Source of the DNA: Roseibacillus persicicus
GTDB lineage: Bacteria > Verrucomicrobiota > Verrucomicrobiia > Verrucomicrobiales > Akkermansiaceae
Direction of reading: 5' to 3'
Assembly (NCBI RefSeq): GCF_014651675.1
Contig: NZ_BMXI01000002.1
Location: 89,695 to 153,694, forward strand
Length of the DNA: 64,000 nucleotides
The notes under the pieces are model-generated. The model was not told where the DNA came from and searched no databases. It saw only the letters and a program-made list of their open reading frames with translations. Below, in pieces: positions 29,171 to 63,880 of the stretch (positions are counted from its first letter, which is position 1; the number at the start of each line of letters is the position of its first letter). The position numbers and the translations under genes were made by a program.

Positions 29171-30175
29171 CTATTCGCCGGCCTCATCGAACCAGGCCAA
29201 GGCCTTGGCGAACTCGTCTTGGTTGATGGTGTGCCCTCCGGTAAACTTTTCATCGCGGATCTGACGATAGCCCGCGCTCTTGATGCCTGAAGTGACGGTA
29301 TCGGTCTGGCTCTGGTTCACCAGATTGTCGGAGTCGCCCCAACTCACCCACGCTTTGACCTTCTTGAAGGCGCTCTTTCTCGCTCCACTTTCCTCCAAGG
29401 CAAGGTCGGCAAAGGGCTGGTTGCATCCCCCGAGAAATACTCCCGAAACCGTGAGGTCATTGGCCAGGAGTTGAGCAGTGCGAAAGAAGCTCCCCTTGGA
29501 ACCACTGGAAAATCCTCCGCAGGCGTGGGTCCAGTTCATGAATTCCGGCCATTCGGCGGCGATTTTCTCAATCACTTCAGCGTGAAAGTCAGCATCGCCT
29601 TCCCAAATCGCGATTGTGGTCTCGCGTGGATTGCCGTGCTCGGTGTCGGCGGCAATCACCACGTAACCTGCCGCGAGGGCTTTCGCTGACATCGCGCTGA
29701 TGCGGGCGATGTTGCCCGAGAGACGCTCTTTCTCATTATTGATTCCGCCTACTGGCCAGAAAACCTTTTGGGGTTTCGACGGGTCGAAGTCAGCGGGGAG
29801 AGAGAGCGCGATCTTTATCTTGGTCGGTTGCAGTTTGTTGTCGGAAAGGCTTCTTTGTGTTTTTTCGGAAAGGTCGGTCTCAATATTGTTCAAGGAGCCA
29901 GCCTTCAACTCCTGTCCAAATAAAGAAAGAGCTCCGACCGAGGCCTCTTCCTCGGCGTTTTCGCTCTCTTCCCGCACATATTCCTGGTCGGCTTCCGAGA
30001 GCCGATCGAGAGGGATCTTGAATTCTTTACCCCGCATTAGAAGAACGACGGTGTCGCCCTCTGTCCGGACCAAATCGGCGGTGATTTTCTTGCCGTCATT
30101 TGAAGTCCACTCGCGAGCATTGGCAAAACTCGTAACCCCTAAAGTGGCACAACAGAGAAAGGAAAGTATCTTCAT
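29171..30175 (-). CDS. secreted serine esterase (alpha/beta hydrolase) with N-terminal SHD1-like beta domain
   Basis: Signal peptide, N-terminal SHD1-like domain (DGKKITADLVRTEGDTVVLLMRGKEFKIPL) and a C-terminal alpha/beta fold with GxSxG nucleophile GFSSG. Confidence 0.6.
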   Translation of the reverse strand: MKILSFLCCATLGVTSFANAREWTSNDGKKITADLVRTEGDTVVLLMRGKEFKIPLDRLSEADQEYVREESENAEEEASVGALSLFGQELKAGSLNNIETDLSEKTQRSLSDNKLQPTKIKIALSLPADFDPSKPQKVFWPVGGINNEKERLSGNIARISAMSAKALAAGYVVIAADTEHGNPRETTIAIWEGDADFHAEVIEKIAAEWPEFMNWTHACGGFSSGSKGSFFRTAQLLANDLTVSGVFLGGCNQPFADLALEESGARKSAFKKVKAWVSWGDSDNLVNQSQTDTVTSGIKSAGYRQIRDEKFTGGHTINQDEFAKALAWFDEAGE

Positions 30176-30302
30176 CTTGGCAAAGTGTTAGAAATTGAAC
30201 TCAAACTGGCAAGAAAATCGATGCCTTTGTAAAGAGAGACTCCAATTCTAGCTCGGAATTATAATCGCCTTGATGTGACTTTTTCGCTCTTATGTCCTCG
30301 CC

Positions 30303-30971
30303 GTGAAAGAACTCTGGGAACAAGCCATCCTCTCCTATAACTTGCCATTGACGATCCTGTTGGGGTTGGTGGCGGTCTTTTGGCTTCTAAGCGTTCTCGG
30401 AACCGTTGATATCGATGGCTTTGACTTCGATGTCGATGCGGATGTTGACGCCGAAGGAGCAGGTGATGGTCTTTCGGGACTCTTTGGTTTCGCGATGCGT
30501 TTTGTGAATGCTCACGACGTGCCGGTGACAATTGTCTTGAGCCTGCTCAGTCTCTTCATGTGGGCCGGCAGTGTCCTGGCGAATTACTATTTCAATCCGG
30601 CTCAGAGCGGCCTGATAGCGGCGGGAATCTTTGTGGGTGTTTTCTTTGCTTCCGCTCTGCTGGTTAAGTTAGTGACCGAACCCCTGCGTCCTTTTCTCCG
30701 CCAGTTGAAAAACGAGGAAGACAATCAGGAGCCCATCGTGGGACTGGTGGGGAAGGTGAAGAGCCGGGTCCTCGACAGCAACTTTGGTCAGATTGAAGTC
30801 CCCCGCACCAATGGCGCCCCCGCTTTGCTCAATGCCATTCTCCCCGATGAGGGGGAAAGCCTCGTCCGTGGTGATGAAGTTCTCATTATCGATTTCGATA
30901 AAGACCGCGACAAATATCTCGTTCAATCCAGTGCCCGCCTGGGCGTGGACTCCCCAACTCCAAAAATCTAA
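30303..30971 (+). CDS. NfeD/YqiJ-family membrane protein (OB-fold partner of SPFH proteins)
   Basis: TM helices followed by a C-terminal beta domain (GLVGKVKSRVL...GDEVLIID). Immediately precedes the flotillin gene. Confidence 0.7.
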   Translation: MKELWEQAILSYNLPLTILLGLVAVFWLLSVLGTVDIDGFDFDVDADVDAEGAGDGLSGLFGFAMRFVNAHDVPVTIVLSLLSLFMWAGSVLANYYFNPAQSGLIAAGIFVGVFFASALLVKLVTEPLRPFLRQLKNEEDNQEPIVGLVGKVKSRVLDSNFGQIEVPRTNGAPALLNAILPDEGESLVRGDEVLIIDFDKDRDKYLVQSSARLGVDSPTPKI

Positions 30972-30989
30972 CAAACAACAACTCCTATA

Positions 30990-33011
30990 ATGAATTCCAC
31001 TTGGTTCACCCTTGCCATATTAGAGCCCGTTCTGATGATCACGTTCGTCGGAGTTGGTCTATTCGTCCTCTTTGGTCTTTACCTCCTTCTGACTTGTTAC
31101 CGCAAGGTCGAGAAGGGAACGGCCCTGATTCGAACCGGTAGTGGCGGCACGAAAGTCTACTTCAATGCCGGCCATGTCTTCCCGATTCTGCACCGCGCCG
31201 ATATGATGGATATCTCCCTCAAGCGCATCGAGATCGACCGCACCGGACGTAATGGTCTCATCTGTAAGGACAACATGCGCGCGGACATCAAGGTCGCCTT
31301 CTTCGTGCGGGTCAACAACGCGGGCGAAGACGTTCTTCGCGTGGCGGAAAGTGTGGGCTGTGTCCGCGCCAGTAGCGAGGACGAGATTCGCACGCTCTTC
31401 GATGCCAAGTTCTCCGAGGCGCTCAAGACAGTCGGTAAACGCTTTGACTTCACTTCTCTTTACGAGGACCGCGACACTTTCCGGGATGAGATTTTGAAAG
31501 TCATCGGCACCGACCTCAACGGCTTCGTCCTCGATGATGCTGCCATTGACTTCCTGGAGCAAACTCCGATCGAGATGCTCGATCCGGATAACATTCTCGA
31601 TGCCGAAGGTATCAAGAAAATCACCCACCTCACCGCCGAGCAGAAGAAGCTTTCCAACCACATCGAGCGCGACAAGGAACGCGTGATCAAGCAACAGGAC
31701 GTGGAAGCGCGCGAGGCCATTCTCGAACTCGAGCGCCAATTGGCGGAGACCGAGTCCAAGCAAATGCGCGAGGTCGAAACGGTCAAGGCCCGCGAAGAAG
31801 CGGAGACCCAGAAGGTGCGCGAAGAGCAGCGCCAGCGCAGCGAGCAAGCACGCATTGCCGCCGAGGAAGAGATTCAGATTTCAGAAGAGAACAAGCAGCG
31901 CCAGGTTCTCGTGGCCCTGCGCAACAAGGAGCGCACCGATGGGGTCGAGCTGGAGCGCGTCGAGCGCGAGCGCATGTTGGAACAAATCGAACGCGAACGC
32001 GTCACCGAGCTGAAGCGCATCGAGGCCGACAAGGCGGTCGAGGTCCAGAAGAAGGAAATCCAGGAAGTGATTCGCGAGCGCGTCGCAGTCGAAAAGACTG
32101 TGGTCGAGGAGCAGCAGCGCATGAAGGATATCGAGGAATTCGCGACCGCCGATCGTCAGAAGCAGGTGACCGTGACCTTGGCCGAGGCCCAGGCGCAGGA
32201 AAAAATGATTGGCCGCATCAAGGAAGCGGAAGCGCAGAAAGAGTCCGCGCAACTGGCTGCCGACGAGCATGCCTACGAGGTCATCAAGGAAGCCGAAGCC
32301 GGCCGCGCTGCTGCCGAGATGAACGCCGAACAGCGCATCATCGCTGCCGAAGCCGAGCAGACTGCATCGGAGAAAGAATCGAACGCCAAGAAGATGATGG
32401 CAGAGGCCATCGCCAAAGAAGCCGCCGCCATCGGATTGGGCGAAGCCGAGGTCCTCAAGGCCATGGGCGTTGCCGATGCCGAGGCCATCGAGCTGAAGGC
32501 TGCCGCGATGAAACTCTTCGAAGAAGCAGGTCAGGAGCACGAGGAATTCAAGCTCGAGCTGGAGAAAGAGAAAGCGGTCGAGTTGGCCGAAATCGACGTC
32601 CAGCGTCTCATTGCGGCCGAGCAGGCCAAGGTGGTGGGCGAGGCCCTCAAGAGCGCCAAGATCGACATCGTGGGTGGCGAGACCGAATTCTTCGACCGCA
32701 TCACCAAGGCCATTACTACTGGAAAGGTAGTAGACCGGGTGGTCGACAACAGCCGCGTCATCGACGACGTCAAGGAGACCTTCTTCAATGGCGATCCGGA
32801 TTACTTCAAGAGCCAGCTCTCGGGTTGGATTCAGGATTTCGGAGTCGAAACCGAAGACCTCAAGAACCTCTCCATTTCGGCTCTGTTAGGGAAGCTGGTC
32901 ACCGATGCCAAAGGCGAACAGCGCACCAAGCTCATCGGCATGATGGGCGCCGCCGAACGCTTCGGCCTCTCCGATGCCAAGGCGGGAGAGTTGTTGAAGA
33001 AGTTGGGGTGA
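30990..33011 (+). CDS. flotillin-like SPFH/band-7 protein (YqiK family) with long Ala/Glu-rich coiled coil
   Basis: N-terminal TM, SPFH domain (GTALIRTGSGGTKVYFNAGHVFPILHRADMMDISLKRIEI) and >300 aa of EA/KE-rich heptads. Confidence 0.85.
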   Translation: MNSTWFTLAILEPVLMITFVGVGLFVLFGLYLLLTCYRKVEKGTALIRTGSGGTKVYFNAGHVFPILHRADMMDISLKRIEIDRTGRNGLICKDNMRADIKVAFFVRVNNAGEDVLRVAESVGCVRASSEDEIRTLFDAKFSEALKTVGKRFDFTSLYEDRDTFRDEILKVIGTDLNGFVLDDAAIDFLEQTPIEMLDPDNILDAEGIKKITHLTAEQKKLSNHIERDKERVIKQQDVEAREAILELERQLAETESKQMREVETVKAREEAETQKVREEQRQRSEQARIAAEEEIQISEENKQRQVLVALRNKERTDGVELERVERERMLEQIERERVTELKRIEADKAVEVQKKEIQEVIRERVAVEKTVVEEQQRMKDIEEFATADRQKQVTVTLAEAQAQEKMIGRIKEAEAQKESAQLAADEHAYEVIKEAEAGRAAAEMNAEQRIIAAEAEQTASEKESNAKKMMAEAIAKEAAAIGLGEAEVLKAMGVADAEAIELKAAAMKLFEEAGQEHEEFKLELEKEKAVELAEIDVQRLIAAEQAKVVGEALKSAKIDIVGGETEFFDRITKAITTGKVVDRVVDNSRVIDDVKETFFNGDPDYFKSQLSGWIQDFGVETEDLKNLSISALLGKLVTDAKGEQRTKLIGMMGAAERFGLSDAKAGELLKKLG

Positions 33012-33093
33012 TATTGCTTCCACGGAAATTCTCTTCAGCCCGTCGTCAAGCCATGTCGTCGCAAGCCCAACCAATACCTTCCAAAGTCTCGTT

Positions 33094-33798
33094 GTCCCAG
33101 CGGGACTTGGAGAAGGTAGCCCGGGGTCAGCGAGGCACGAGCGCAGCCCCTGGGTCTTTGGCAAAAGGTCCAGCGCTCTGGAAGAGCGCTAGAAGTAGGT
33201 TCATGTCGGTTCAACCCCAATCTCGCAGCTATGCCTTCTACTCATTCATCTCTCCACTTCCACTTGGTTTTCTCGACAAAGAATCGCGAAAATTGGTTCG
33301 AAGCAGATTTTCGGCCCAGGCTCTTTGCCTATCTGGGAGGAGTGGTGAAAGGGTTGGAAGGTCATGCTCATGCGAACGGTGGAATTGCCAACCATGTCCA
33401 TCTCCTGGTAGGGCTCAAGCCTACCCATTGTCTCTCCGATTTGATGAGAGAACTGAAGTCGGATTCGACGAAGTGGATCAAGGGGCAATTGAACCGCAGT
33501 TCTTTTGCCTGGCAGACCGGCTATGGAGCATTTTCCGTGAGCGCACCCGACTTGGAGAAAGCGAGAAACTATGTTCTCAATCAGGAAGAACATCATCGAA
33601 AACAGAGTTTCCAAGAAGAGTATCTCATCTTTTTAAAGCGAGGATTGGTCGAATACGACAAGCGTTACCTATGGTGATTCCGGCTTGTTCGAGGACTTCT
33701 CGCACCCCTTCAGGGTGCAGGTCACTCGCTACCGGCTCCAGGGGCTGCGCTCGTGCCTCGCTGACCCTTGGCTACCGTCTTTTTCGTCCCGCTGGGAC
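33094..33798 (+). mobile_element. IS200/RAYT-like unit: Y1-transposase gene bracketed by near-perfect 60-bp inverted repeats
   Basis: Left arm 33094-33153 (gtcccagcgggacttggagaaggtagcccggggtcagcgaggcacgagcgcagcccctgg). Right arm 33738-33798 is its reverse complement with a small internal difference. Each arm begins with the palindrome gtcccagcgggac. Confidence 0.8.
33231..33677 (+). CDS. IS200-like / REP-associated tyrosine transposase (Y1 HUH transposase)
   Basis: 148 aa. HFHLVFSTKNRE, the HUH motif HVHLLV and catalytic-Tyr region YGAFSVS. Confidence 0.8.
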   Translation: MPSTHSSLHFHLVFSTKNRENWFEADFRPRLFAYLGGVVKGLEGHAHANGGIANHVHLLVGLKPTHCLSDLMRELKSDSTKWIKGQLNRSSFAWQTGYGAFSVSAPDLEKARNYVLNQEEHHRKQSFQEEYLIFLKRGLVEYDKRYLW

Positions 33799-33868
33799 GC
33801 TTTTGGAAAGACCGGGGAATGAGTCCAATTTAGAACACTGAACGGATCCTCGCGGTCCAAAAAATTTA

Positions 33869-36800
33869 ATGCCAGATACTGAACAGTTAGAAGGTGGAAG
33901 CTACGAGGTCATTCGGGCCCGGCTGGAGAAACATGGCGAGGACCTTCGTCGTCGCCTGGGAATTCTCAACGAAGCCCGCAAGGAGATCTTCGGCGCGGTC
34001 GAGACTTCTCTCGTCGCCACCGAGCGGGTCACCACCGAGCACAATTGCGTGCCTCGCGATCTCATCGCGGTGGGCGGCAATCGTTTCCTCTTTGGCTACA
34101 ACATCCAGTTCGGTCTCAAGCAGACGACCGAAATCGCGGATGTGTTTGCCGCCTATGAGTACGATCCGGAAAGCCACGTCTTCCACGCCCTGGCGGTGGA
34201 GGAGGTGCTCAGCGACCCCGCTTTTTCGGACGACTTCAAATACCTCTACAAGTATTACAAGGAGACCAACTTCGCGAAGTTCATGGTCATTGGACCGAAT
34301 CTTTACATGAAAATGCGGGTCGGCAAAGGGGTGGATGACTTCAAGACCTTCAAGTGGCTCCGGCCCGGGGATGGTCGCCTCGAATACATCGGCAATCGCT
34401 TCGACCACGAGTTCCAATATCCGCCTCAACAAGAGTTCGAATGGAAGCGGGCGCACCGCGACATGCAGCGCGCGGGGATGCATCCCCACATCTCGATCAA
34501 CGACCGCGTTTTCGTCGAGACCGTGGGTGGGGACCTCACCATCAAGGTCGAGGACAATACCGAATCAGGCGAAGGCATTTATGCCGAGCCCGTCAACGAT
34601 CCGGACCAGTCTCTCGACGATGCCGAGGTGCTCTATGCCGAGGTCGGGCCTCTCGTTCTTCTCAAGATTTTGCCCTATCGCGAGGAGCTTCATCGCTACT
34701 TTGTCTTCAACGAAAAGACCCAGGAGGTCAAACGCATTGATGCCATCGGTCACTCGTGCGTGCTTCTTCCCGACGATCAGGGACTCATTTTTTCGAACGG
34801 CTATCTTCTTCTAACAGGTGAGGTGCGCATCTTCGACACCGCGCTCTCGAACATGATGTTCGAGCGCCGCATTCCTTCCGCCAACGGGGAGGATACTCTC
34901 TACGTGTTCTACAATCGGGTCAGTGGGGACTACATTTTGCTCTCCTACAACTTGATCAGCCAGTCCGTGGAGACCCCGGTGATCTGCAATGGCTACTCGC
35001 TTTTTCCAAATGGGGAACTGGTCTACTTCAAGACCGAAGACGCGGCCCAGAAGCACCATACTTTGCAGGTCTGGACCACTCCTTATCTCAGTGAAGAGGC
35101 GCTTGCGGCCCAGCATCAGGATGAAGGCTCTTATCTCTTCAAGATTGGAAACGCCGACCTGGTTCGTGGAATGTCGGAGTGCCGGGAAGTCCTGACTCTG
35201 TTAGGAAAGGACGATAATTACGGAGGTCTCTATCTCGATCTCGTGAAGCGCACGGGCGACCTCGTGGACTCCTACTTTTGGTTGGGTAAAGAAGAGACTG
35301 CCGAATTGTCGGTGCCGGTGCGGGAGATCAATCGTGCGGCTCAGTCTGCCCTGGAGGAGTTCGACAAAGTGCGCGCCCAGCGTCAGTCGGCGGCCAGTCG
35401 CACCAAGGAGGTGCAAGAGGTGGTCGAGACTTTGTTAGCAAAAGTCCGCCACTCTCCGCCCGATGACATCTTTGGATTCGTGCATCATCTCTCCGAGCTG
35501 CGCACCCGCCGGGGCGAGGTCATCGGCCTGCGGGAAGTGCGCTATGCCAAGACGGAAACCATCGATGAGATGGAGGCCAAGTTGGTGGAGGCCGGGGAAG
35601 CCACTTCGCAAAAGACTGTCGAGTTTTTGCTGAAGGACGAAGCTCTCGTGCCCTATCGCAAGGCGGTTACCGAACAAGGAGACACTATCCCCGAACTTTC
35701 AAAAGTCACCGAAGCCGATGCGGTGGGGGCGGCCTTGGACAAAGCGGGAGACGAGCTGGAAATGCTCATCGACATCGTGGGCAATCTCAAAATTGAGGAT
35801 GCCACCCAGACTACTGCCATCATCGACGGAATCTCGAGCATCTACGCCGAGCTCAATGGAGTGCGCGCGGACCTCAAGAACAAGCGCAACGATCTCGCGA
35901 AGGCCGAGGGGACGGCTCAGTTCGGAGCCCAGATGAAGCTCATCTCGCAAGCGGTGGTCAACTATCTGGAAGTCTGCGATACTCCCGAGAAGTGCGACGA
36001 GTCGCTCACCAAGCTGATGATTCAGTTGGAGGAATTGGAAGGACGCTTCTCCGAATTCGATGACTATGTCGAGGAGCTCGCCGGCAAGCGCGAGGAAGTC
36101 TACGAAGCCTTCGAGGGGCGCAAACAGCAGCTCATCGACAGCCGCAACAAGCGGGCTGGTTCTTTGCTTCGCTCGGCGGAGCGCATCCTGGCGGGTATCG
36201 AGCGGCGCTTGGAAAGTTTTGATTCGCTGGACGAGATCAACGGCTATTTCGCTGGCGATCTGATGGTGGAGAAAGTGCGGGGAGTCGTCGATGACCTCAA
36301 GGCTCTCGGAGACGGGGTCAAGGCCGACGACCTGAGCACGCGGTTGAAGACTTTGCGCGAAGATGGTGCGCGCCAGTTGAAGGATCGCAAGGAACTCTAT
36401 GTCGATGGCAAGAACGTCATCCGTTTCGGCAAGCATGCCTTCTCGGTCAATACCCGCGAGCTGGAATTGTCGGTCGTGGCGCGCGACGAGGAGATGTGGT
36501 TCCACCTCGCAGGCACCGATTATTTTGAGAAGATCGTCGACCAAGAATTCAACGAGACGCGAAAGGTCTGGGACCTTGAAGTTCCCAGCGAGACCGCCGA
36601 TCTCTACCGTGGTGAGTGGCTGGCCAGCCTCTTGTTAGAGGGTGAACTAGTAGGTGAGACTGCGGCTGAATTTTTGCCGCAGGTGCAAAGCTTCATGCAG
36701 GCCCGTTACGCGGAAGGTTACGTTAAAGGCGTGCATGATGAGGATACCGCCAAGATTCTGGAGGCCCTGGTGCCGATTGCCAAGAATGCGGGGCTCTTGC

Positions 36801-38917
36801 GCTTCAGTCCCTTGGTGCGGGGGGCGGGAGTGGTGCTCTGGGCGGATCGCGATCAAGAAGGACGCTTGGAGATTTCCCGTCTCATCGCTGGTCACGGGCA
36901 ACGGCTGAAGGCCTTCGGCGAAAAGCAGCGCAGTCGCCACGAGCTGGAAGACGCGCTGGCATTGGAACTGAGCGATCAGTTGAGTCGATCGAGATTCGCG
37001 GGGCGGGTCAGTGCCGCGGCGGTGGCGGAGTATCTCTTTGCGCAATTGCGCGAGGGGGATGGCTTCGTGGTTTCCAATGCCGCCTCCGAGGCCATCAAAC
37101 ACTTGCGCAGTGAGCTCACGGCCAAGCGTGCGAGCGATTCCTTCGAAAACGCCATGGCGGAGCTAAGTCGCGCGGAGGCCCGGCATTCTCTCGCCTTGGA
37201 TTGGTTGCGGGGAATTTTGGAAGGGGAAGAGTCTACTGCCGTGCTCATCGAAGCTGCCGCTCACTTGGCTCGGGGAGGGTACGAGCAACGTGAGGTCAAG
37301 CGAGTGGAATTGTCAGTTGAAGTGGCCGGAATGCGCGGATCACACAGCCGAATCGAAGGCGGCGTGCTGCCTATCCAGTTTAACGATTTCCTTGAACGAG
37401 TGGGACGACTGCGTGACGAGACTTTGCCGCTCTACACGCGTTTCCAAGAGCGCAAGAAAGACCTCATCGCGGCCAAGCGCGCGGAGATGAAGCTCGAGGA
37501 GCTGAAGCCCGAAGTGATGAGTGCTTTTGTGCGCAATCGCTTGTTAGACGAAGTCTTTCTCCCGGTCATTGGCGACAATTTGGCGAAGCAAATCGGCACC
37601 GCAGGCGCGGACTCGCGCACCGATCGGATGGGTCTTCTGCTCCTGATTTCTCCTCCGGGTTACGGAAAAACCACCTTGATGGAATACGTGGCCAATCGTC
37701 TGGGGCTCACTTTCGTCAAAGTGAACGGACCTGCCCTGGGCCATCACGTGGTCTCGCTGGACCCTGCGCAAGCGGGTGACATGTCGGCGGGCGAAGAATT
37801 GGAGAAGCTGAACCTGGCGCTCGAGATGGGCGACAACGTGATGCTCTACCTCGACGATATCCAGCACACCAATCCGGAATTTTTGCAGAAGTTCATCAGT
37901 CTTTGTGATGCCCAGCGGAAGATTGAAGGCGTCTATCAGGGCAAGGCCCGCACTTATGACCTGAAGGGGAAAAAGGTCGCGGTGGTGATGGCGGGAAACC
38001 CTTATACCGAGAGTGGTGGCAAGTTTCAGATTCCCGACATGCTCGCCAACCGGGCCGATACCTACAACTTGGGTGACATCCTCGGCAGTCACGAGTCAGC
38101 CTTCAAGGATAGCTACATCGAGAATTGTCTCACCTCTAACAGCACGCTTTCCAAACTGGCGAGCAGCGGTCTGAAGGATGTGCGCGCGGTCATGAAGATG
38201 GCTGCTGGCGCGGAGCTGGAGGAAGTGGACTTCGAGGCCAACTACACCCCGGGCGAGATTGAAGAATTCGTGCGCGGGATGAAGCTGCTCTATCAGGTGC
38301 GCGACACCATTCTGCGGGTCAACATGCAATACATCGCCAGCGCTGCGCAGGAAGATGCCTATCGCACCGAACCGGCCTTCAAGTTGCAGGGTTCCTACCG
38401 AAACATGAACCGCATCGCGGAAAAGGTGGTGCCGTTGATGACCGACGAAGAGCTCCGCGAGCTTGTGGAATCGCACTACGAGAACGAAGCGCAAAACCTC
38501 ACCACGGGAGCGGAGGCGAACTTGCTGAAGTTCCGCGAAATGGAAGGATTGCTCAACGAGGAGGAAGCGGCGCGTTGGGAGCAGATCAAGACCGAGTTCC
38601 GCAAACAGAAGGTTCTCGGAGGAGCCGGGGAGACCGATCCGGTTGCCAGAGTCGTGGCCCAGCTGCAGGAATTTCGCGAAGGGCTCTCGTCCATCGAGCA
38701 AGGGATTGCGATGGCGGGAAGCAATTACGCCAAGCCCCAGACCCTCACCGATGCCACCGTTGCCCAGCTGCGCGAAATCATCGCTGGCTTGCGCGAGGTG
38801 CCGGTGAAAGTCGACATCAACGTCGTGCCCGTGCAAGACGAAGATGGCTCCATCGAACAAATGGAGAAACGACCTTCACCCATCGACATCCAGCCCAACG
38901 TCGAACAAGGCGACTGA
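33869..38917 (+). CDS. giant (1,682 aa) protein: N-terminal beta-rich domain, ~750-aa coiled-coil region, single dynein/MoxR-type (AAA_5-like) AAA+ module near residues 1250-1450, helical C-terminus
   Basis: Walker A LLLISPPGYGKTTL, Walker B VMLYLDD and sensor VVMAGNPYTESGGKFQIPDMLANRADTY, compared with this window's MoxR [24 protein letters not shown]. One uninterrupted ORF. No TM segments. Confidence 0.8.
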   Translation: MPDTEQLEGGSYEVIRARLEKHGEDLRRRLGILNEARKEIFGAVETSLVATERVTTEHNCVPRDLIAVGGNRFLFGYNIQFGLKQTTEIADVFAAYEYDPESHVFHALAVEEVLSDPAFSDDFKYLYKYYKETNFAKFMVIGPNLYMKMRVGKGVDDFKTFKWLRPGDGRLEYIGNRFDHEFQYPPQQEFEWKRAHRDMQRAGMHPHISINDRVFVETVGGDLTIKVEDNTESGEGIYAEPVNDPDQSLDDAEVLYAEVGPLVLLKILPYREELHRYFVFNEKTQEVKRIDAIGHSCVLLPDDQGLIFSNGYLLLTGEVRIFDTALSNMMFERRIPSANGEDTLYVFYNRVSGDYILLSYNLISQSVETPVICNGYSLFPNGELVYFKTEDAAQKHHTLQVWTTPYLSEEALAAQHQDEGSYLFKIGNADLVRGMSECREVLTLLGKDDNYGGLYLDLVKRTGDLVDSYFWLGKEETAELSVPVREINRAAQSALEEFDKVRAQRQSAASRTKEVQEVVETLLAKVRHSPPDDIFGFVHHLSELRTRRGEVIGLREVRYAKTETIDEMEAKLVEAGEATSQKTVEFLLKDEALVPYRKAVTEQGDTIPELSKVTEADAVGAALDKAGDELEMLIDIVGNLKIEDATQTTAIIDGISSIYAELNGVRADLKNKRNDLAKAEGTAQFGAQMKLISQAVVNYLEVCDTPEKCDESLTKLMIQLEELEGRFSEFDDYVEELAGKREEVYEAFEGRKQQLIDSRNKRAGSLLRSAERILAGIERRLESFDSLDEINGYFAGDLMVEKVRGVVDDLKALGDGVKADDLSTRLKTLREDGARQLKDRKELYVDGKNVIRFGKHAFSVNTRELELSVVARDEEMWFHLAGTDYFEKIVDQEFNETRKVWDLEVPSETADLYRGEWLASLLLEGELVGETAAEFLPQVQSFMQARYAEGYVKGVHDEDTAKILEALVPIAKNAGLLRFSPLVRGAGVVLWADRDQEGRLEISRLIAGHGQRLKAFGEKQRSRHELEDALALELSDQLSRSRFAGRVSAAAVAEYLFAQLREGDGFVVSNAASEAIKHLRSELTAKRASDSFENAMAELSRAEARHSLALDWLRGILEGEESTAVLIEAAAHLARGGYEQREVKRVELSVEVAGMRGSHSRIEGGVLPIQFNDFLERVGRLRDETLPLYTRFQERKKDLIAAKRAEMKLEELKPEVMSAFVRNRLLDEVFLPVIGDNLAKQIGTAGADSRTDRMGLLLLISPPGYGKTTLMEYVANRLGLTFVKVNGPALGHHVVSLDPAQAGDMSAGEELEKLNLALEMGDNVMLYLDDIQHTNPEFLQKFISLCDAQRKIEGVYQGKARTYDLKGKKVAVVMAGNPYTESGGKFQIPDMLANRADTYNLGDILGSHESAFKDSYIENCLTSNSTLSKLASSGLKDVRAVMKMAAGAELEEVDFEANYTPGEIEEFVRGMKLLYQVRDTILRVNMQYIASAAQEDAYRTEPAFKLQGSYRNMNRIAEKVVPLMTDEELRELVESHYENEAQNLTTGAEANLLKFREMEGLLNEEEAARWEQIKTEFRKQKVLGGAGETDPVARVVAQLQEFREGLSSIEQGIAMAGSNYAKPQTLTDATVAQLREIIAGLREVPVKVDINVVPVQDEDGSIEQMEKRPSPIDIQPNVEQGD

Positions 38918-38922
38918 GCAAC

Positions 38923-39183
38923 GGAGCAAGGACATTCCTGTCCTTGAGCAGAGCCTCGGTGGTCAGAGCTTGCGTCAGAACTTCGAAATGGGGTGGACGG
39001 TTCGGCGGGGACGGTTCGGTCCAGGGACAGGAATGTCCCTGCTCCGGAGGACGACTAATGGAGCAAGGACATTCCTGTCCTTGAAGCAGAGCCTCGGTAG
39101 TCAGAGCCGGCATCAGAACTTCGGAGTGGGGTGGACGGTTCGGTGTGGACGGTTCGGTCCAGGGACAGGAATGTCCCTGCTCC
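38923..39183 (+). repeat. REP/BIME-like array, two ~123-bp units (REP-A family) upstream of RAYT2
   Basis: Units 38923-39045 and 39060-39183. Each is bounded by inverted copies of the hairpin ggagcaaggacattcctgtccttg / ccagggacaggaatgtccctgctcc. Confidence 0.85.
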
Positions 39184-39216
39184 ATTTCTTGCTTGTCGTT
39201 TAGGGATATAGTTCGT

Positions 39217-39852
39217 ATGAACATTTTTATGTTCTTTCAGCACGGAGAAAAAGTATTCCGGCACGGACGGGATCTTCCGCATTGGCAACAGGTGGGGACA
39301 ATACAGTTCATCACCTTCCGTCTCGCAGACGCGATGCCTCAAAAGAAGTTAACGAATTGGAAAGAGGAGCGTGATTCCTGGTTGGCGTGGAATCCGAAGC
39401 CTTGGAGCGACCGCCAACAGAATGAGCATAGAAGGTTGTTTCACGAGAAGTTGGAGGAGTGGTTGGATGAAGGAGCAGGTTCTTGTCTTCTTGCCGAGAA
39501 ATCGAATCGAGTAATTCTGGCTGATGTTTTGATGAAAGCTCATGGAGATAAGGCCAGCTTTGAGTCCTTTGTGATTATGCCAAATCATGTTCATCTTTTG
39601 GTACAGCCGTTTGTTGAGTTGGAGAAGTTGATCAAAATTTGGAAAGGTGTTTCGGCGCGGAAAATTGGAAAGGGTTCGATTTGGCAAGGGAATTATCGCG
39701 ATACTATGATTCGCGATGCAGAGCATTTTCGAAATACGGTTCGATATATTCGTAAGAACCCGAAGCATTTAAAATCGGAAGAGTTCACTCTCTGGGAAGG
39801 AAAATCCGCGAAGACGATTCCATCGCTGGAGCAAGGACATTCCTGTCTTTGA
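39217..39852 (+). CDS. REP-associated tyrosine transposase (RAYT, IS200-like Y1 family)
   Basis: HUH motif PNHVHLLVQP. C-terminal WQGNYRDTMIRDAEHFRNTVRYIRKNP resembles E. coli RAYT (WQPRFWEHAIRNTKDYRHHVDYIYINP). The last 8 codons and stop lie inside REP unit 3. Confidence 0.8.
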   Translation: MNIFMFFQHGEKVFRHGRDLPHWQQVGTIQFITFRLADAMPQKKLTNWKEERDSWLAWNPKPWSDRQQNEHRRLFHEKLEEWLDEGAGSCLLAEKSNRVILADVLMKAHGDKASFESFVIMPNHVHLLVQPFVELEKLIKIWKGVSARKIGKGSIWQGNYRDTMIRDAEHFRNTVRYIRKNPKHLKSEEFTLWEGKSAKTIPSLEQGHSCL

Positions 39853-40223
39853 GCAGAGCCTCGGTAGTCAGAGCTGGCGTCAGAACTTCGGAGTGGGGTG
39901 GACGGTTCGGTGGGACGGTTCGGTCCAGGGACAGGAATGTCCCTGCTCCGGGGGACGACTAATGGAGCAAGGACATTCCTGTCCTTGAAGCAGAGCCTCG
40001 GTGGTCAGAGCTGGCGTCAGAACTTCGAAATGGGGTGGATGGTTCGGCGGGGACGGTTCGGTCCAGGGACAGGAATGTCCCTGCTCCGGTGGACGACTAG
40101 CGGAGCAAGGACATTCCTGTCCTTGAGCAGAGCCTCGGTAGTCAGAGCTGGCGTCAGAACTTCGGAGTGGGGTGGACGGTTCGGTGGGACGGTTCGGTCC
40201 AGGGACAGGAATGTCCCTGCTCC
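39828..40223 (+). repeat. REP/BIME-like array, three ~123-bp units (REP-A family) downstream of RAYT2
   Basis: Units 39828-39949, 39964-40087 and 40102-40223, in the same orientation as the upstream units, with 12-15 bp spacers. Confidence 0.85.
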
Positions 40224-40265
40224 GTTTGTCTTTCTTTAGAACTGGGAGCGTGATTTTCTTGCGCG

Positions 40266-40976
40266 GTGGCTTTGCTGCTTCTGATTTTCTTTGCGATTGC
40301 GCTTCTTTACTCGTCCGTGGGGTTCGGGGGAGGCTCGTCTTACACGGCGGTCTTGGCTTGGCGCGGGGAGAGTCCAGAGGTGATTCGCCTGGTGTCTCTG
40401 ACTTGCAATCTGGTGGTGGTTTCCATTGGGGGCTGGGCCAGTCTGCGGGCTAAACAAGTGCGAGCCGGATTGCTTGCTCCCTTGCTAGCGACCTCGATTC
40501 CCGGGGTCTGGCTGGGGGCTCAGTGGAAAGTCTCGGACTCCCTCTTCTTTCAAATTCTCGGACTGGCGCTGGCGGTGGCGGGGGGGGTGTTGTTGGTCAA
40601 AGTGCAGGACCGCGAAGAAAAAGCGCTCTCTCTAACAGCCCTTCTTCCTATCGGATTGGCTTTGGGGATCTTGGCCGGAGTCACGGGGATTGGCGGCGGT
40701 ATTTATCTGGTGCCCGTTCTTCATCTTCTTTCGGCTGGAAAGGCGCGCGAGGTGGCGGCGGTGGGGACGTGGTTCATTCTCGTGAATTCCACCGTGGGCT
40801 TGTTGGTTCTGGCACCGACCGCGGATTGGTCTCAGCCCGGCTGGTTGCCAGTGGTGGTGGCTGGGGGCGGCTTGATTGGCGCGCGCATGCTGCAGGGGGT
40901 CTTCGACGAACAGTTGGTTCGTAGGTGGACGGGGGTGCTGATTTTAGTCGTCGCCGGGCGGGTGCTCTTTTTTTAG
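40266..40976 (+). CDS. TauE/SafE (DUF81) family anion exporter
   Basis: Two repeats with G-rich loops (VGFGGGSSY and GIGGGIYLVP). 236 aa, 7-8 TM. Confidence 0.75.
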   Translation: MALLLLIFFAIALLYSSVGFGGGSSYTAVLAWRGESPEVIRLVSLTCNLVVVSIGGWASLRAKQVRAGLLAPLLATSIPGVWLGAQWKVSDSLFFQILGLALAVAGGVLLVKVQDREEKALSLTALLPIGLALGILAGVTGIGGGIYLVPVLHLLSAGKAREVAAVGTWFILVNSTVGLLVLAPTADWSQPGWLPVVVAGGGLIGARMLQGVFDEQLVRRWTGVLILVVAGRVLFF

Positions 40977-41152
40977 AACGCTGCAAATTTGACGAGTTGA
41001 TTGTAGCGCATTTTTCGGTAGGGCTGTTTTGCCAAAACAGCCGCGAATGTTCGGGGAAGGTCCCCAGGCTCACGCCCTTCGTCCGCGAGAGGATCGCGCG
41101 AGGAATTCAGAACTCTCGCGGTCCTTTTATCAAAAGGACCCTACCGGAGTTC

Positions 41153-41225
41153 GCGTCAGAACTTCGGGGTGGGGATGACGATTCGTGGGGACGGTTCGCG
41201 CCAGGGACAGGAATGTCCCTGCTCC
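41153..41225 (+). repeat. REP-A half-unit (3' hairpin half) in convergent gap between TauE gene and argB
   Basis: gcgtcagaacttcggggtggggatgacgattcgtggggacggttcgcgccagggacaggaatgtccctgctcc, ending 5 bp from the argB stop and followed by TTTTTT. Confidence 0.75.
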
Positions 41226-42270: not shown

Positions 42271-43425
42271 ATGAAAGTTCACCAACGCACCTTACTTTCT
42301 GTAAATCAGGAGTTTACCGCCTTCCCTGCCGGGGGAGAAAGCCAGCTGCTGCTTGTCTTTGCCCCCCGCAGTTTTCTAACAGCGCCCGGATTTCTGGACC
42401 GCATTCGAGAATCCTGTCCGGAGGGAACACGAATGGCGGGATGTTCCACGGCGGGGGAGATTTGTTCGGAAGGCGTTCTCGACGAGGTGGCGACTCTCAC
42501 CTTCGTGCAGTTCGCGAGCACCAGGGTCGAGGTCGTGCGCGAGGCGGTAGCGGAGGAGGGGATGGCGCCGAAGCTGAAAAGCGAGTCGCTGGGCGGCAAG
42601 TTGGCGCGGCGAGTGCACGATACGGTCCCCGAGCCATCCTATCTCTTCATCCTGAGCGATGGGCTCTATATCAATGGCAGTGACCTCGTGGCTAGTCTGG
42701 AGGCAGAGTTTACTGGGATCTGTGGCTTTTCGGGGGGATTGGCAGGCGACGGTGAATCGTTTGAAGAGACTATCGTGGTGGCGGACTTCACCATTGTCCC
42801 CAAGACCTGTGTGGCGGTGGTTTTCAAGGGAGATCGGCTCAAGGCCGAATCGGTTGCGGAATCTGGCTGGAGCCCTTTCGGGACCTTTCGCGAGGTAACC
42901 AGTTCGGAGGGGAATTGCCTCAAGTCGCTGGACGGCGAGAGCGCTCTGGAGGTCTACTCGGCATATCTGGGAGAGGAGGCCAAGGACTTGCCCGCGTCGG
43001 GTTTGCTCTATCCTCTGGAGGTCACCGCGCCCGGCTCCCAGTCCAAGGTGATTCGTACAGTCTTCGGGGTGGATCGGGGGGAAAAGACGATGTCCTTTGC
43101 GGGTGATGTTCCGCAGGGGAGTTCCGCCCGATTGATGAGCGCGAGCTATCAGCAATTGGTGGACGGTGCAGGAGAGGCTTCGCGAAAGGCAGCCTCCGCA
43201 TTGCCCTCGGCGGACCTGGCGATTCTGGTGAGCTGTGGCGGGAGGAGGTTGGCGATGAGCGCTTACACGGATCTGGAAGTGGAGACGGTGAAGGAAAACC
43301 TCATGGGGGAAGTTCCAGTCTGTGGGTTCTATTCCTATGGAGAAATTGCCCCTTCCCAAAATGCCACGGGGTACGAGCTACACAATCAGACCATGACCAT
43401 CACGCTACTGAAGGAGGAAGAGTAA
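42271..43425 (+). CDS. FIST-domain (FIST_N + FIST_C) sensory protein
   Basis: 384 aa with FIST-like GCSTAGEI, ILVSCGGR and CGFYSYGEIAP motifs. No output domain. Confidence 0.7.
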   Translation: MKVHQRTLLSVNQEFTAFPAGGESQLLLVFAPRSFLTAPGFLDRIRESCPEGTRMAGCSTAGEICSEGVLDEVATLTFVQFASTRVEVVREAVAEEGMAPKLKSESLGGKLARRVHDTVPEPSYLFILSDGLYINGSDLVASLEAEFTGICGFSGGLAGDGESFEETIVVADFTIVPKTCVAVVFKGDRLKAESVAESGWSPFGTFREVTSSEGNCLKSLDGESALEVYSAYLGEEAKDLPASGLLYPLEVTAPGSQSKVIRTVFGVDRGEKTMSFAGDVPQGSSARLMSASYQQLVDGAGEASRKAASALPSADLAILVSCGGRRLAMSAYTDLEVETVKENLMGEVPVCGFYSYGEIAPSQNATGYELHNQTMTITLLKEEE

Positions 43426-43438
43426 AGAGCGATTCGTC

Positions 43439-45460
43439 ATGAGTGAAAAATTACATCCCTTGTTGGCCTTGCAGCTGAAAAAGACTCTCCCACCGGGGAG
43501 CGGATTGATGAGCGATATTGATGCCGCGAAGTCTTTTCCCAGCGAGCTCTTGCCCGACCTTTTGGCGAAGGTGAACGAGAGCTACTACAGCGCGGAACTG
43601 CAGAACAAGCGCCTGGCCCACGCCTTGCAGTTGAGCACCAATGAAGCCAATGATGCGGTCAAGGATCTCCGTGTTATCGACAAAGAGAGGGAGGTTTCTC
43701 TGGCCTTCATCCATCGTCAGCTCAATGAATTTGCGGAGAGATACCCCGGGGTGATCACGCGCTGTGGCGACGAGGATGATGCTCTGCCGAGCCGTCACCT
43801 CACCGAGAGGTTCCAGCAATTGGTTGATGCCTGGCAATCGCTGGTCACCCAGTTGGAAAAGTCGAAAATGCTCTCCGAAGAACTGCGGGGGCAGGCTGAC
43901 AAGGCGAGTGAGGCAAAATCCAATTTCCTCGCAGTAATGAGCCACGAAATCCGAACGCCCTTGAACGGGGTGATCGGGATGGCGGATTTGATTCTCCAAA
44001 CCAGTCTTACCACCGAGCAGAAAGAGCATGCCGAGACTATTCATTCCTGTGGAAAAACTCTCCTCAGTCTCATCGACGACATCCTGGACTATGCCAAGAT
44101 TGAGTCCGGGAATTTGGAGCTGGAGAAGAAGCCCTTCCTGATTCGCGAAGCGGTGGAGGATTCACTCGAGCTTTTTAAGTACGCGGTCTTGAAGAAGGAT
44201 ATCGAACTCCTCTTCAACCCGACGGACGAGGTGCCGAATGCGGTTTTAGCTGATTTGACTCGTTTTCGCCAAATCATCGCGAACCTTGTGGGCAACGCGG
44301 TCAAGTTCACCAGCACGGGGGAAATCGTGGTCAGCGTGAAACGGAATCAGGACGAAAGTCATCAGGGGCAATGGCTCTTCACCGTGCGGGACACTGGGGT
44401 TGGGATTCCGGCAGATAGCATTCCCCATCTCTTTCAGGTATTCTCGCAGGCGGATAGCTCAGTCTCGCGCAAATTTGGCGGCACCGGCTTGGGCTTGGCC
44501 ATCACCCGTCGCCTCGTTCATGCGATGGGGGGCGAGATTTGGGTCGAGAGTGTCGCAGGGCAGGGGACGTCCTTTTTCTTCACCATCGACCTGCCCGCCA
44601 GCGAGGCTGAGATTCAGCCCGAGCGGCCGAGTCCGGTGCTGTCGTCCCTGACGGGAAAGCGAGTTCTGGTTGTCGATGACAATGCCACCAACCTCAGCAT
44701 CCTTCGCAATACCTTGAGCGCCTGGCATGCGGAGGTGACCTGCTTCGATGATCCTTCGGCGGCCCTTGGCTGGCTGCGATCCAATCAAGTCCCGGACTTG
44801 ATCATCTCCGATCAATTGATGCCCAAGATGACCGGAATGGAATTGGTGGAGGAAGTCCGCCGAACCCAGTCCGGCCTCATTCCCATCCTCATCCTAACCT
44901 CGGTCTTGCCACCCAAACATTCGCACAAGCGCTTGATGGTGGCGACCAAACCCATCAAGGCCTCCGAGCTGTCGCAAATCATTGCCGGCCTCTTGGAAGA
45001 AAAGCGCGAGCACTCGCCCCAGCAGGCAACCGTCCAGCGCTTCGTGAACTTTCCCGCTTCTGTTTTGGTGGCGGAGGACAATCCCATCAACCAGCGTCTC
45101 GTGGATCTGATTCTCAAATCGATGGGGATTCGCGCGGCCTTCGTCGAGGATGGAACGGCGGCAGTCGATTACGTGAAGGAGCATCGACCCGACATCATTC
45201 TCATGGATGTGCGCATGCCGCAGATGGATGGTTACGAAGCCACGGAAGCCATCCGCCAGCTCACCACCATTGGAGAGCAACCCGCAATCATGGGTCTAAC
45301 AGCCAACGCTCTTTCCGATGAACGCAAGAAGGCCTTCCAGGTGGGGATGGACGATTACCTGACCAAGCCGGTCAAGGCCTCGATCCTCTCAGAAGCTTTG
45401 CATAAGGCCTGCAGCGCGAAGTACGGTCCCCCGCAAATGGAAACCGTCGTTCGCAATTAG
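43439..45460 (+). CDS. soluble hybrid sensor histidine kinase with two C-terminal receiver domains
   Basis: HisKA H-box AVMSHEIRTPLNGVIGMADL, HATPase_c (VRDTGVGIP, GGTGLGLAI), REC1 (VLVVDDNATN...SDQLMPKMTG) and REC2 (VLVAEDNPIN...LMDVRMPQMDG). No TM. Confidence 0.85.
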   Translation: MSEKLHPLLALQLKKTLPPGSGLMSDIDAAKSFPSELLPDLLAKVNESYYSAELQNKRLAHALQLSTNEANDAVKDLRVIDKEREVSLAFIHRQLNEFAERYPGVITRCGDEDDALPSRHLTERFQQLVDAWQSLVTQLEKSKMLSEELRGQADKASEAKSNFLAVMSHEIRTPLNGVIGMADLILQTSLTTEQKEHAETIHSCGKTLLSLIDDILDYAKIESGNLELEKKPFLIREAVEDSLELFKYAVLKKDIELLFNPTDEVPNAVLADLTRFRQIIANLVGNAVKFTSTGEIVVSVKRNQDESHQGQWLFTVRDTGVGIPADSIPHLFQVFSQADSSVSRKFGGTGLGLAITRRLVHAMGGEIWVESVAGQGTSFFFTIDLPASEAEIQPERPSPVLSSLTGKRVLVVDDNATNLSILRNTLSAWHAEVTCFDDPSAALGWLRSNQVPDLIISDQLMPKMTGMELVEEVRRTQSGLIPILILTSVLPPKHSHKRLMVATKPIKASELSQIIAGLLEEKREHSPQQATVQRFVNFPASVLVAEDNPINQRLVDLILKSMGIRAAFVEDGTAAVDYVKEHRPDIILMDVRMPQMDGYEATEAIRQLTTIGEQPAIMGLTANALSDERKKAFQVGMDDYLTKPVKASILSEALHKACSAKYGPPQMETVVRN

Positions 45461-62935: not shown

Positions 62936-63880
62936 CTAAACCGGGACGGGGGTGTCGGCGAGAATCTGCTCCACGATGGAGATGTTGGTGAGTCCGGCGA
63001 ACTTGGCGTCGGGCTCGAGGACCAGACGGTGTGCGATGACGGGGACTGCCAGCTTCTGGATGAGTTCGGGAGTCACGAAGTCCTGGCCATTGAGGAGGGC
63101 CATGGCTTGGGCGGTATGCATGAGCGCCAGCGAGGCCCGCGGAGAGGCGGGCAGCTTGACTTTGTCTGCCTTGCGGGTGGCATTGACCAGACTAACGATA
63201 TAGTGCCGAACCTCGTCGGTGATGGTGACAGCCCTTGCCAGTTTGCGCACAGCCAGAAGGTCCTCCCGGCTGCAAACAGAGGTCAGCTGGTCCAAGGGGT
63301 GGGCCGTCTGCTGCTCGGTCAGGAGGGCGACTTCCTCTTCGACGGAGAGGTAGCCCAGGTCACACTGCATGGCGAAGCGGTCCATCTGGGCCTCGGGGAG
63401 GGGGTAGGTGCCTCGGAATTCGACCGGGTTCTGGGTGGCTACTACGAAAAAGAGTTCTCCCAAGTCATAATGGCGGCCTTCAATGGTGGTCTGACCCTCT
63501 GCCATCGCTTCGAGCAGGGCCGATTGGGTCCGGGGGGAAGCGCGGTTGATCTCGTCGGCGAGGAGGAGGTCGGTGAAGATGGGGCCGTGGTGAAAGCTAA
63601 ACTCGGATTTGGAGGGGTCAAAGATGGAAACCCCGAGCACGTCGGAAGGAAGGAGGTCGGGGGTGAACTGGAGGCGCTTGAAGCTCATCCCGCCCACCGC
63701 TTGGGCCAATGCTTTGGCGAGGGTGGTTTTTCCTGTGCCGGGGTAGTCCTCGAGGAGCAGGTGACCGCCGCCGACCAAACAGGCCAGAACCTGGCGGACG
63801 GCCTCGTCTTGTCCCCGGATTACGGTGGAAATGGCGGCTTCGATTTGATGGAGGATGCTCGTGGCCTCGGCAGTCGTCAT
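62936..63880 (-). CDS. MoxR-family AAA+ ATPase
   Basis: GHLLLEDYPGTGKTTLAKALA, VATQNPVEFRGTYPLPEAQMDRF, 314 aa. Confidence 0.85.
   Translation of the reverse strand: MTTAEATSILHQIEAAISTVIRGQDEAVRQVLACLVGGGHLLLEDYPGTGKTTLAKALAQAVGGMSFKRLQFTPDLLPSDVLGVSIFDPSKSEFSFHHGPIFTDLLLADEINRASPRTQSALLEAMAEGQTTIEGRHYDLGELFFVVATQNPVEFRGTYPLPEAQMDRFAMQCDLGYLSVEEEVALLTEQQTAHPLDQLTSVCSREDLLAVRKLARAVTITDEVRHYIVSLVNATRKADKVKLPASPRASLALMHTAQAMALLNGQDFVTPELIQKLAVPVIAHRLVLEPDAKFAGLTNISIVEQILADTPVPV

Follow-up and report, generated by a model that had tools for sequence, protein, structure and literature searches.

A DUF3686-family AAA+ ATPase of Roseibacillus persicicus and its genetic linkage to flotillin-like and YqiJ-like membrane proteins

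The closest described relative of the system considered here is an operon reported by Ravi et al. 2024 (mSystems 9:e00847-23, PMC11237479), which comprises CesT/Tir-PspA, a three-transmembrane YqiJ/YuaF protein, a band-7/flotillin protein and an ATPase built from a propeller, a coiled coil and an AAA+ module. Its prototype (Table S3) is the locus of Dokdonia donghaensis, whose PspA is ANH61663.1. Abbreviated operons without PspA are more widespread and may cooperate with PspA encoded elsewhere, and the authors propose chaperone-like, ESCRT-analogous roles in sub-membrane dynamics, for which no experiment is cited (PMC11237479). The present analysis concerns the gene for such an ATPase in a stretch of 64,000 nucleotides (nt) from Roseibacillus persicicus (Verrucomicrobiota; RefSeq assembly GCF_014651675.1, contig NZ_BMXI01000002.1, positions 89,695 to 153,694 of the forward strand), hereafter the window, whose own numbering is used throughout.

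The window ATPase agrees with that of the described operon in domain order, length class, possession of the motifs [IVL]SPPGYGKT and MAGNPYTE, and position after YqiJ-like and SPFH genes. It differs in its surroundings, as an IS200 element lies between the SPFH and ATPase genes and neither pspA nor cesT was found when both were sought across the 64 kb; because these two are missing, the locus is of the abbreviated form. On balance, the ATPase probably acts on a flotillin/YqiJ scaffold during membrane or envelope stress, and not in DNA repair.

Family membership and conserved gene order

A sequence-only reading of this DNA had given the protein no recognisable family assignment, which proved to be false. 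In a Pfam scan, PF12458 (DUF3686) matches residues 25-470 over the whole model (positions 1-448 of 448, E 6.7e-187), PF25472 (DUF7902) matches residues 591-674 (nt 35639-35890, E 1.4e-26), and the P-loop region matches several generic AAA models. The accompanying claim of an uncharacterised function survives, because DUF3686 is not itself a characterised family. With NCBIfam and PADLOC models the ATPase shows only weak similarity, confined to the P-loop or the coiled coil and far below the cut-offs, and PDB sequence searches with the whole protein and with a profile of the family's AAA+ region recovered no close solved relative.

A search with the DUF3686 N-terminal domain (1.84 billion representatives) returned 752 clusters at 50% identity, in which complete members are 1,600-1,930 residues long and DUF3686 is always N-terminal. 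Relatives were confirmed in at least 588 species by surveying species-level genomes with two family-specific peptide patterns, [IVL]SPPGYGKT and MAGNPYTE; both motifs (the first as SPPGYGKT) are present in the window ATPase and invariant in the family alignment. The surveyed relatives include Verrucomicrobiota, Planctomycetota, Bacteroidota, Desulfobacterota, Clostridia and Kiritimatiellota, to which a search of a plasmid collection adds Proteus mirabilis, Vibrio campbellii, Halomonas, Photobacterium, Deinococcus, Streptomyces, Nonomuraea and the Pseudomonas fluorescens SBW25 plasmid pQBR103. The window ATPase is an ordinary member of a catalogued family, described computationally and experimentally untouched.

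All but 5 of its 1,682 positions are identical in the NCBI protein "DNA repair ATPase [Roseibacillus persicicus]". The same name is carried by thousands of database entries, and PF12458 is described in Pfam as "ATPase involved in DNA repair". The literature searched contained no paper on DUF3686 or PF12458, nor one in which the term 'DNA repair ATPase' occurs together with flotillin or SPFH. No support was found for the name, which is misleading.

The family shows a near-obligate genetic linkage to an SPFH gene and a YqiJ/NfeD-type partner, and a recurrent linkage to PspA systems. Among 80 sampled loci with flanks of up to 10 kb per side, the 61 with at least 3 kb of upstream sequence were counted. 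An SPFH homologue lies directly upstream of the ATPase gene on the same strand in 58 of these, at a distance of 5 bp upwards and mostly below 300 bp, and a YqiJ-like gene lies two genes upstream in 43 (tblastn; 49 loci by clustering of open reading frames, ORFs). The clustered flanking ORFs give the order YqiJ-like, SPFH, ATPase, with no conserved gene downstream. The sequence-only reading had correctly placed the ATPase after an NfeD-flotillin pair, separated from it by an IS200 insertion, and had left open whether such neighbours recur; it had handled as incidental a pair that is the defining context of the family. Similarity of the SPFH genes and of the ATPase genes to their window copies co-varies across loci (Spearman 0.76, n=57; 0.52 without close relatives), which fits inheritance as a unit and could also arise from shared ancestry alone.

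In the window, the first gene of this triad encodes the small YqiJ-like protein, and the second a flotillin-like protein with an N-terminal transmembrane (TM) segment, an SPFH domain, a long helical stretch rich in Glu and Ala, and a conserved C-terminal part of about 190 residues. The Band_7 match of the latter appears only when residues 1-240 are scanned alone, and a full-length Pfam scan returns nothing even at E ≤ 1, probably because the Glu/Ala-rich region trips the HMMER bias filter, a pitfall for automatic annotation. The SPFH protein also has a weak similarity to FloT (E 0.016), and neither it nor the YqiJ-like protein matched anything in PDB sequence searches.

Longer versions of the module are found in other lineages. 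Bacteroidota loci carry CesT_Tir_1 (E 3e-58) and PspA (PF04012, E 6e-41) further upstream together with a divergent HTH/S24 regulator, and their gene order is that of the D. donghaensis prototype. On pQBR103, the order is YjfI, PspA, rhomboid, DUF2491, DUF350, DUF1190, a glutathionylspermidine-synthase-like gene, a YqiJ-like hypothetical gene, SPFH and "DNA repair ATPase". The YjfI-PspA-polyamine and YqiJ-like/SPFH/ATPase modules of this plasmid form, together with the rhomboid protease gene, a single uninterrupted same-strand run (NC_009444.1 84437-97641; loci L081 and L082). Proteus mirabilis carries the three-gene core.

Architecture of the ATPase

The gene is a continuous ORF of about 5 kb and 1,682 codons, as had been read from the sequence (Table 1). 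Its G+C content (0.56-0.58) is like that of the remainder of the window. Full length and the order of parts are kept in at least 119 homologues that share 59-88% identity with it, and in dozens that share 30-50%; since these relatives retain the complete protein, the uninterrupted ORF is, judged by comparison, not a fusion artefact, a concern that the sequence-only reading had raised. The protein is cytosolic, with a highest Kyte-Doolittle 19-residue mean of 1.19 and no TM-like segment, and has one P-loop (residues 1261-1268), which bears out the earlier statements that a TM segment and an N-terminal P-loop are lacking. The domain order of propeller, helical region and one C-terminal AAA+ module is that of the family.

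An alignment of 85 sequences served for two monomeric AlphaFold models, one of residues 1-860 (m00a5ba7c29ad; mean predicted local distance difference test, pLDDT, 83.8) and one of residues 830-1682 (mfdc9b6178d87; mean pLDDT 80.9). The N-terminal region of about 470 residues had been called beta-rich and aromatic-rich, in agreement with 50% strand in the model and 11.9% Phe, Trp and Tyr. Foldseek matches of the N-terminal model are headed by WD40-type propellers, namely DCAF1, Sec12, IFT-A and the clathrin terminal domain (E ~2e-6), and the domain is therefore a beta-propeller. Its most conserved patch (residues ~203-280, window 34475-34710; consensus GxHPHxSIxDxVFVETxGGDLTxKxENNT...QxLDDA...PYxE) could be a partner-binding face.

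The stretch from about residue 480 to 1240 had been read as almost entirely coiled coil, which proved half right. Residues 406-842 are a helical arm in the model, with long helices of 47, 58 and 51 residues, and residues 1171-1212 are a single helix; in residues 843-1170, a beta subdomain, a compact bundle of short helices and a small beta element are predicted instead. The middle region carries a conserved motif, RYxEGYxKGVHDxDA (residues ~948-960), in which Y951, K953, G954, D957 and D959 are invariant in 26 sequences and H956 nearly so. No Pfam family was found in the window ATPase or 25 relatives when residues 843-1210 were scanned separately, nor when residues 1400-1682 were. Two further assignments were considered and dropped. 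The JGI label 'phage shock protein A' on some homologues suggested a PspA/ESCRT-III-like helical arm, yet neither the whole protein nor residues 470-860 matches PspA_IM30 even at E ≤ 1. The conserved GVHDxDA suggested an HD-type phosphohydrolase in the middle domain, but Asn replaces the His in one homologue (L032) and none of the 26 members has a Pfam family there.

The AAA+ module contains all the motifs that had been quoted from it, with SPPGYGKT at 1261-1268, VMLYLDD at 1324-1330 and VVMAGNPYTESGGKFQIPDMLANRADTY at 1372-1399. Across 61 sequences of 32-50% identity, residues S1261-T1268, D1329, D1330, M1374, G1376-T1380, R1395 and Q1507-R1511 (QGSYR) are invariant. The ATPase is expected to be active, because the residues of Walker A and B, sensor-1, the putative Arg finger and the QGSYR segment are among these. 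The AAA+ region retains 56-67% identity across phyla.

Evidence on the clade of the module is mixed and leans towards MoxR/dynein. Pfam AAA_5 passes with 27.9 bits (cut-off 22) and generic AAA, AAA_22 and RuvB_N score similarly, whereas the MoxR-proper model AAA_3 fails with 13.5 bits against a cut-off of 27. In hhalign, a profile of the family aligns with the canonical MoxR-type ATPase encoded elsewhere in the window; the alignment begins at Walker A, ends at the Arg finger and spans 121 columns (79% probability, E 1.6e-5). A Foldseek search ranked Clp, RuvB and MCM first (E ~1e-5). By closest solved structure the module falls with MoxR, dynein or midasin modules, and CbbQ and NorQ of the MoxR class are structural neighbours. 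PDB sequence matches, mainly p97 and RuvB, are limited to the stretch from Walker A to beta2. The earlier 'dynein/MoxR-type' call is supported by a small margin, and the module is a lineage of its own.

Table 1. Features of the ATPase and its genomic surroundings, in window coordinates
Feature	Residues	Position (nt)	Strand	Basis or remark
YqiJ/YuaF-like (NfeD-like) small membrane protein gene, 222 aa		30303..30971	+	Pfam YqiJ_N, weak, E 0.0096
SPFH/Band-7 gene, flotillin-like architecture, 673 aa		30990..33011	+	Band_7 PF01145, E 3.9e-9
IS200-family insertion in SPFH-ATPase spacer		33111..33780	+	bracketed by 43-nt inverted repeats
Inverted repeats of IS200 element		33111-33153 and 33738-33780		93% complementary
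Y1 transposase gene of IS200 element		33231-33677	+	PF01797, E 4.5e-21
DUF3686-family ATPase gene, 1,682 aa		33869..38917	+	ATG start, one ORF without interruption
N-terminal helix	9-41	33893..33991	+	AlphaFold
Beta-propeller, core of DUF3686, 26 predicted strands	~46-405	34004..35083	+	pLDDT mostly 80-90
Helical arm, 85% helix, contains DUF7902	406-842	35084..36394	+	AlphaFold
Middle region without catalogued family	843-1170	36395..37378	+	pLDDT mostly >90
Small beta subdomain of middle region	843-900			AlphaFold
Compact bundle of short helices, very high confidence	901-1140			AlphaFold, pLDDT mostly >90
Small beta element of middle region	1141-1170			AlphaFold
Single long connecting helix	1171-1212	37379..37504	+	AlphaFold
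AAA+ module (alpha/beta core and lid)	1213-1445	37505..38203	+	motifs and AlphaFold
Walker A	S1261-T1268	37649-37672	+	SPPGYGKT
Walker B, DD in place of DE	V1324-D1330	37838-37858	+	VMLYLDD
Pre-sensor-1 beta-hairpin, predicted	1351-1364 (strands 1351-1356, 1359-1364)			AlphaFold
Sensor-1 and putative Arg finger	N1377, R1395	37976-38065	+	
C-terminal helical region	1446-1645	38204..38803	+	AlphaFold
Sensor-2-like motif	1498-1513	38360-38407	+	YRTEPxFKLQGSYRNM, conserved
C-terminal tail, low confidence	1646-1682	38804..38914	+	pLDDT <50
Canonical MoxR-type ATPase gene (comparison sequence)		62936-63880	-	

Insertions and repeats around the ATPase gene

The spacer between the SPFH and ATPase genes measures 857 bp in the window, against mostly less than 300 bp elsewhere, and holds the IS200-family insertion. 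The Y1 transposase scores 58.8 bits with the NCBIfam model transpos_IS200 (cut-off 55), and the 43-nt repeat has only its two copies within the window. The insertion is probably old and probably predates the split of R. persicicus and Roseibacillus ishigakijimensis, since the latter also has a Y1-like ORF at the equivalent spot (L001 6802-7251). Read-through transcription across the element is possible, because the transposase gene lies on the same strand as its neighbours in the triad; a promoter and terminator consensus scan of 30100-40300 gave counts no higher than in shuffled sequence.

Small genes of other kinds occupy the same spacer in other loci: a PDDEXK_3 nuclease-fold gene in L002 (9513-9932, E 5e-33), an ORF homologous to it in L005 (9553-9927) and a DUF559 endonuclease-like gene in L037 (9356-9913, E 1e-33). 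Small, possibly selfish genes seem to land in this spacer repeatedly.

An array of repeat units of about 137 nt begins at the stop codon of the ATPase gene (window 38917-41221) and includes the palindrome CAGGGACAGGAATGTCCCTG in 11 copies, against 0.02 expected by chance. It surrounds a second Y1-transposase-like gene (39145-39852) that is matched best by the model of the repetitive extragenic palindrome (REP)-associated tyrosine transposase (RAYT), at 52 bits and under the cut-off of 80. The array looks like a REP/RAYT cluster. Further downstream (42271-45460), a hybrid histidine kinase gene, matched twice by receiver-domain models, comes immediately after a FIST-domain gene; the two look like a sensory pair and are, as far as seen, unrelated to the ATPase.

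Proposed function and comparison with known systems

The favoured action on a flotillin/YqiJ scaffold builds on a cytosolic protein that combines propeller, arm and intact MoxR-like AAA+ module, and on its family membership and conserved synteny. AAA+ modules would form a ring, the usual arrangement of AAA+ proteins, and the propellers, carried on helical arms, would dock onto the sub-membrane flotillin/YqiJ assembly and, where PspA is co-encoded, also onto PspA polymers. ATP hydrolysis could then assemble, disassemble or turn over the scaffold under envelope stress, an action that would parallel that of Vps4 on ESCRT-III or of MoxR-type ATPases on their client complexes.

Several observations weigh against this proposal. 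The SPFH gene is missing in 3 of the 61 loci (L036, L038 and L041), the window has no pspA of its own, and the IS200 insertion could uncouple expression of the ATPase from that of its presumed partners. MoxR-type ATPases normally use a vWA/MIDAS partner, and no vWA domain was found in the ATPase or the flanking genes scanned, as the sequence-only reading had already stated for the protein; the model also predicts no helix-2 insert hairpin between beta2 and alpha2 (residues 1287-1304). Synteny of this kind points to a functional link and not to the nature of the action on flotillin, and the literature searched contained no experiment on any DUF3686 member.

Alternatively, the ATPase could be a chaperone of the MoxR type whose client is not flotillin, and the SPFH and YqiJ-like proteins would then act as a membrane platform for localisation only. 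This would agree with its sequence similarity to the window MoxR and with its structural neighbours CbbQ and NorQ, the maturation factors of Rubisco and nitric oxide reductase, but it is unlikely given the AAA_3 score of 13.5 bits against a cut-off of 27, the lack of a vWA/MIDAS adaptor and the lack of a conserved third-party client gene near the module.

The patchy distribution over many phyla and the carriage on plasmids including pQBR103, where a UvrD-like helicase and a DNA methyltransferase gene lie a few kb from the ATPase gene, raise the question of a defence or conflict NTPase, in which SPFH, YqiJ and ATPase would sense infection through the propeller and act on the membrane through an AAA+ switch, leading to abortive infection. 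Selfish elements around and inside the module (IS200, and the PDDEXK_3 and DUF559 genes of the spacer) and the weak similarity of the P-loop region to the PADLOC models IetA, BrxF and mad8 could be taken in the same sense. The PADLOC matches (E 5e-5 to 0.05) span coiled coil or P-loop only, however, and no system model fits; no conserved effector (nuclease, protease or toxin) lies nearby and nothing is conserved downstream. The 56-67% identity of the AAA+ region would be unusually slow divergence for a defence gene, and the recurring partners PspA, CesT and polyamine genes are envelope-stress genes, so that a defence role appears improbable.

Much the same low probability attaches to a coat-like structural protein that would polymerise on or with flotillin domes under control of lattice assembly by the AAA+ module. 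Clathrin, IFT and COP subunits have a propeller followed by a helical solenoid, and in the ATPase about 440 helical residues come after the propeller. The host is a member of the Planctomycetes-Verrucomicrobia-Chlamydiae (PVC) group, and the Foldseek matches of the N-terminal model include the clathrin heavy chain (terminal domain and linker), IFT-A subunits and Vps18. These matches nevertheless reflect nothing but the propeller (query-length-normalised TM-score at most 0.19), the long single helices could equally form a flexible arm, and the family is equally common in Bacteroidota and Clostridia.

A true SMC/Rad50/SbcC-like DNA repair ATPase, as implied by the NCBI name and Pfam description and by weak matches to the LmuB coiled coil (E 5e-5) and the RuvB P-loop, is very improbable and is contradicted by the sole, C-terminal P-loop at residue 1261 with no N-terminal Walker A or ABC-type split head, by RuvB NCBIfam scores of 25.6 and 21.5 bits where the cut-offs are 282 and 299, by searches that found no nuclease or DNA-binding domain and no ABC or SMC family match, by neighbours that are membrane proteins in 58 of 61 loci, and by literature searches that turned up no paper tying the family to DNA repair.

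Within the favoured action on the flotillin/YqiJ scaffold, a more specific and rather doubtful possibility is that the family is a dedicated ATP-driven assembly and disassembly factor for bacterial flotillin (SPFH) cages, a 'Vps4 for flotillin' in which a ring of MoxR-like AAA+ modules would grip the cage with six propeller-tipped arms. If this were true, bacterial membrane microdomains would own an energy-dependent dynamics machine, experimentally unrecognised so far, that may work with PspA in membrane repair. No dedicated energy source is established for the assembly, movement or removal of flotillin/SPFH scaffolds, and a large, strongly conserved family tied to flotillin, YqiJ/NfeD and sometimes PspA offers SPFH biology a mechanistic handle, with Proteus mirabilis and the P. 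fluorescens plasmid pQBR103 as tractable carriers. The interest attaches to the family as a possible energy source for flotillin and not to the window locus, which is a typical member.

Compared with catalogued machines, the ATPase stands apart in most respects. The earlier reading that it fits neither BrxC, SMC nor RavA agrees with the present searches. No significant component match and no partner genes were found for PADLOC systems (BREX BrxC/BrxF, Lamassu LmuB, IetA and others), the best match being LmuB over the coiled coil only (E 5e-5), with IetA and BrxF over the P-loop only. The split Walker halves and nuclease partner of SMC/Rad50/SbcC proteins are absent, and the neighbours are membrane proteins. 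RavA of E. coli, an ATPase of the MoxR type, has additional domains and docks to a large partner complex; it differs in having the vWA partner ViaA and a LARA domain, and in lacking a propeller or long arm, and neither the Pfam scan nor the PDB sequence search gave a RavA-specific match. Unlike CbbQ, NorQ, midasin and dynein (AAA_5), the window ATPase has no vWA/MIDAS domain, no helix-2 hairpin in the model and no AAA_3 match, carries DD and not DE in Walker B, looks closer to p97/Cdc48 in the stretch from Walker A to beta2, and has its AAA+ module preceded by 1,200 residues that make up the propeller, arm and middle domain.

Vps4 acting on ESCRT-III/PspA, and FtsH in the HflK/C SPFH cage, are comparable by logic only. 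The window ATPase is no protease, has no MIT domain and is not a classical-clade AAA protein, as the classical AAA model (PF00004) matches partially (model positions 1-72 of 131) and a pre-sensor-1 hairpin is predicted. What is common to all of them is an AAA+ machine coupled to a membrane-shaping scaffold, genetically in the present case, and the likeness extends to PspA, which is co-encoded with ATPases of the window type in some lineages.

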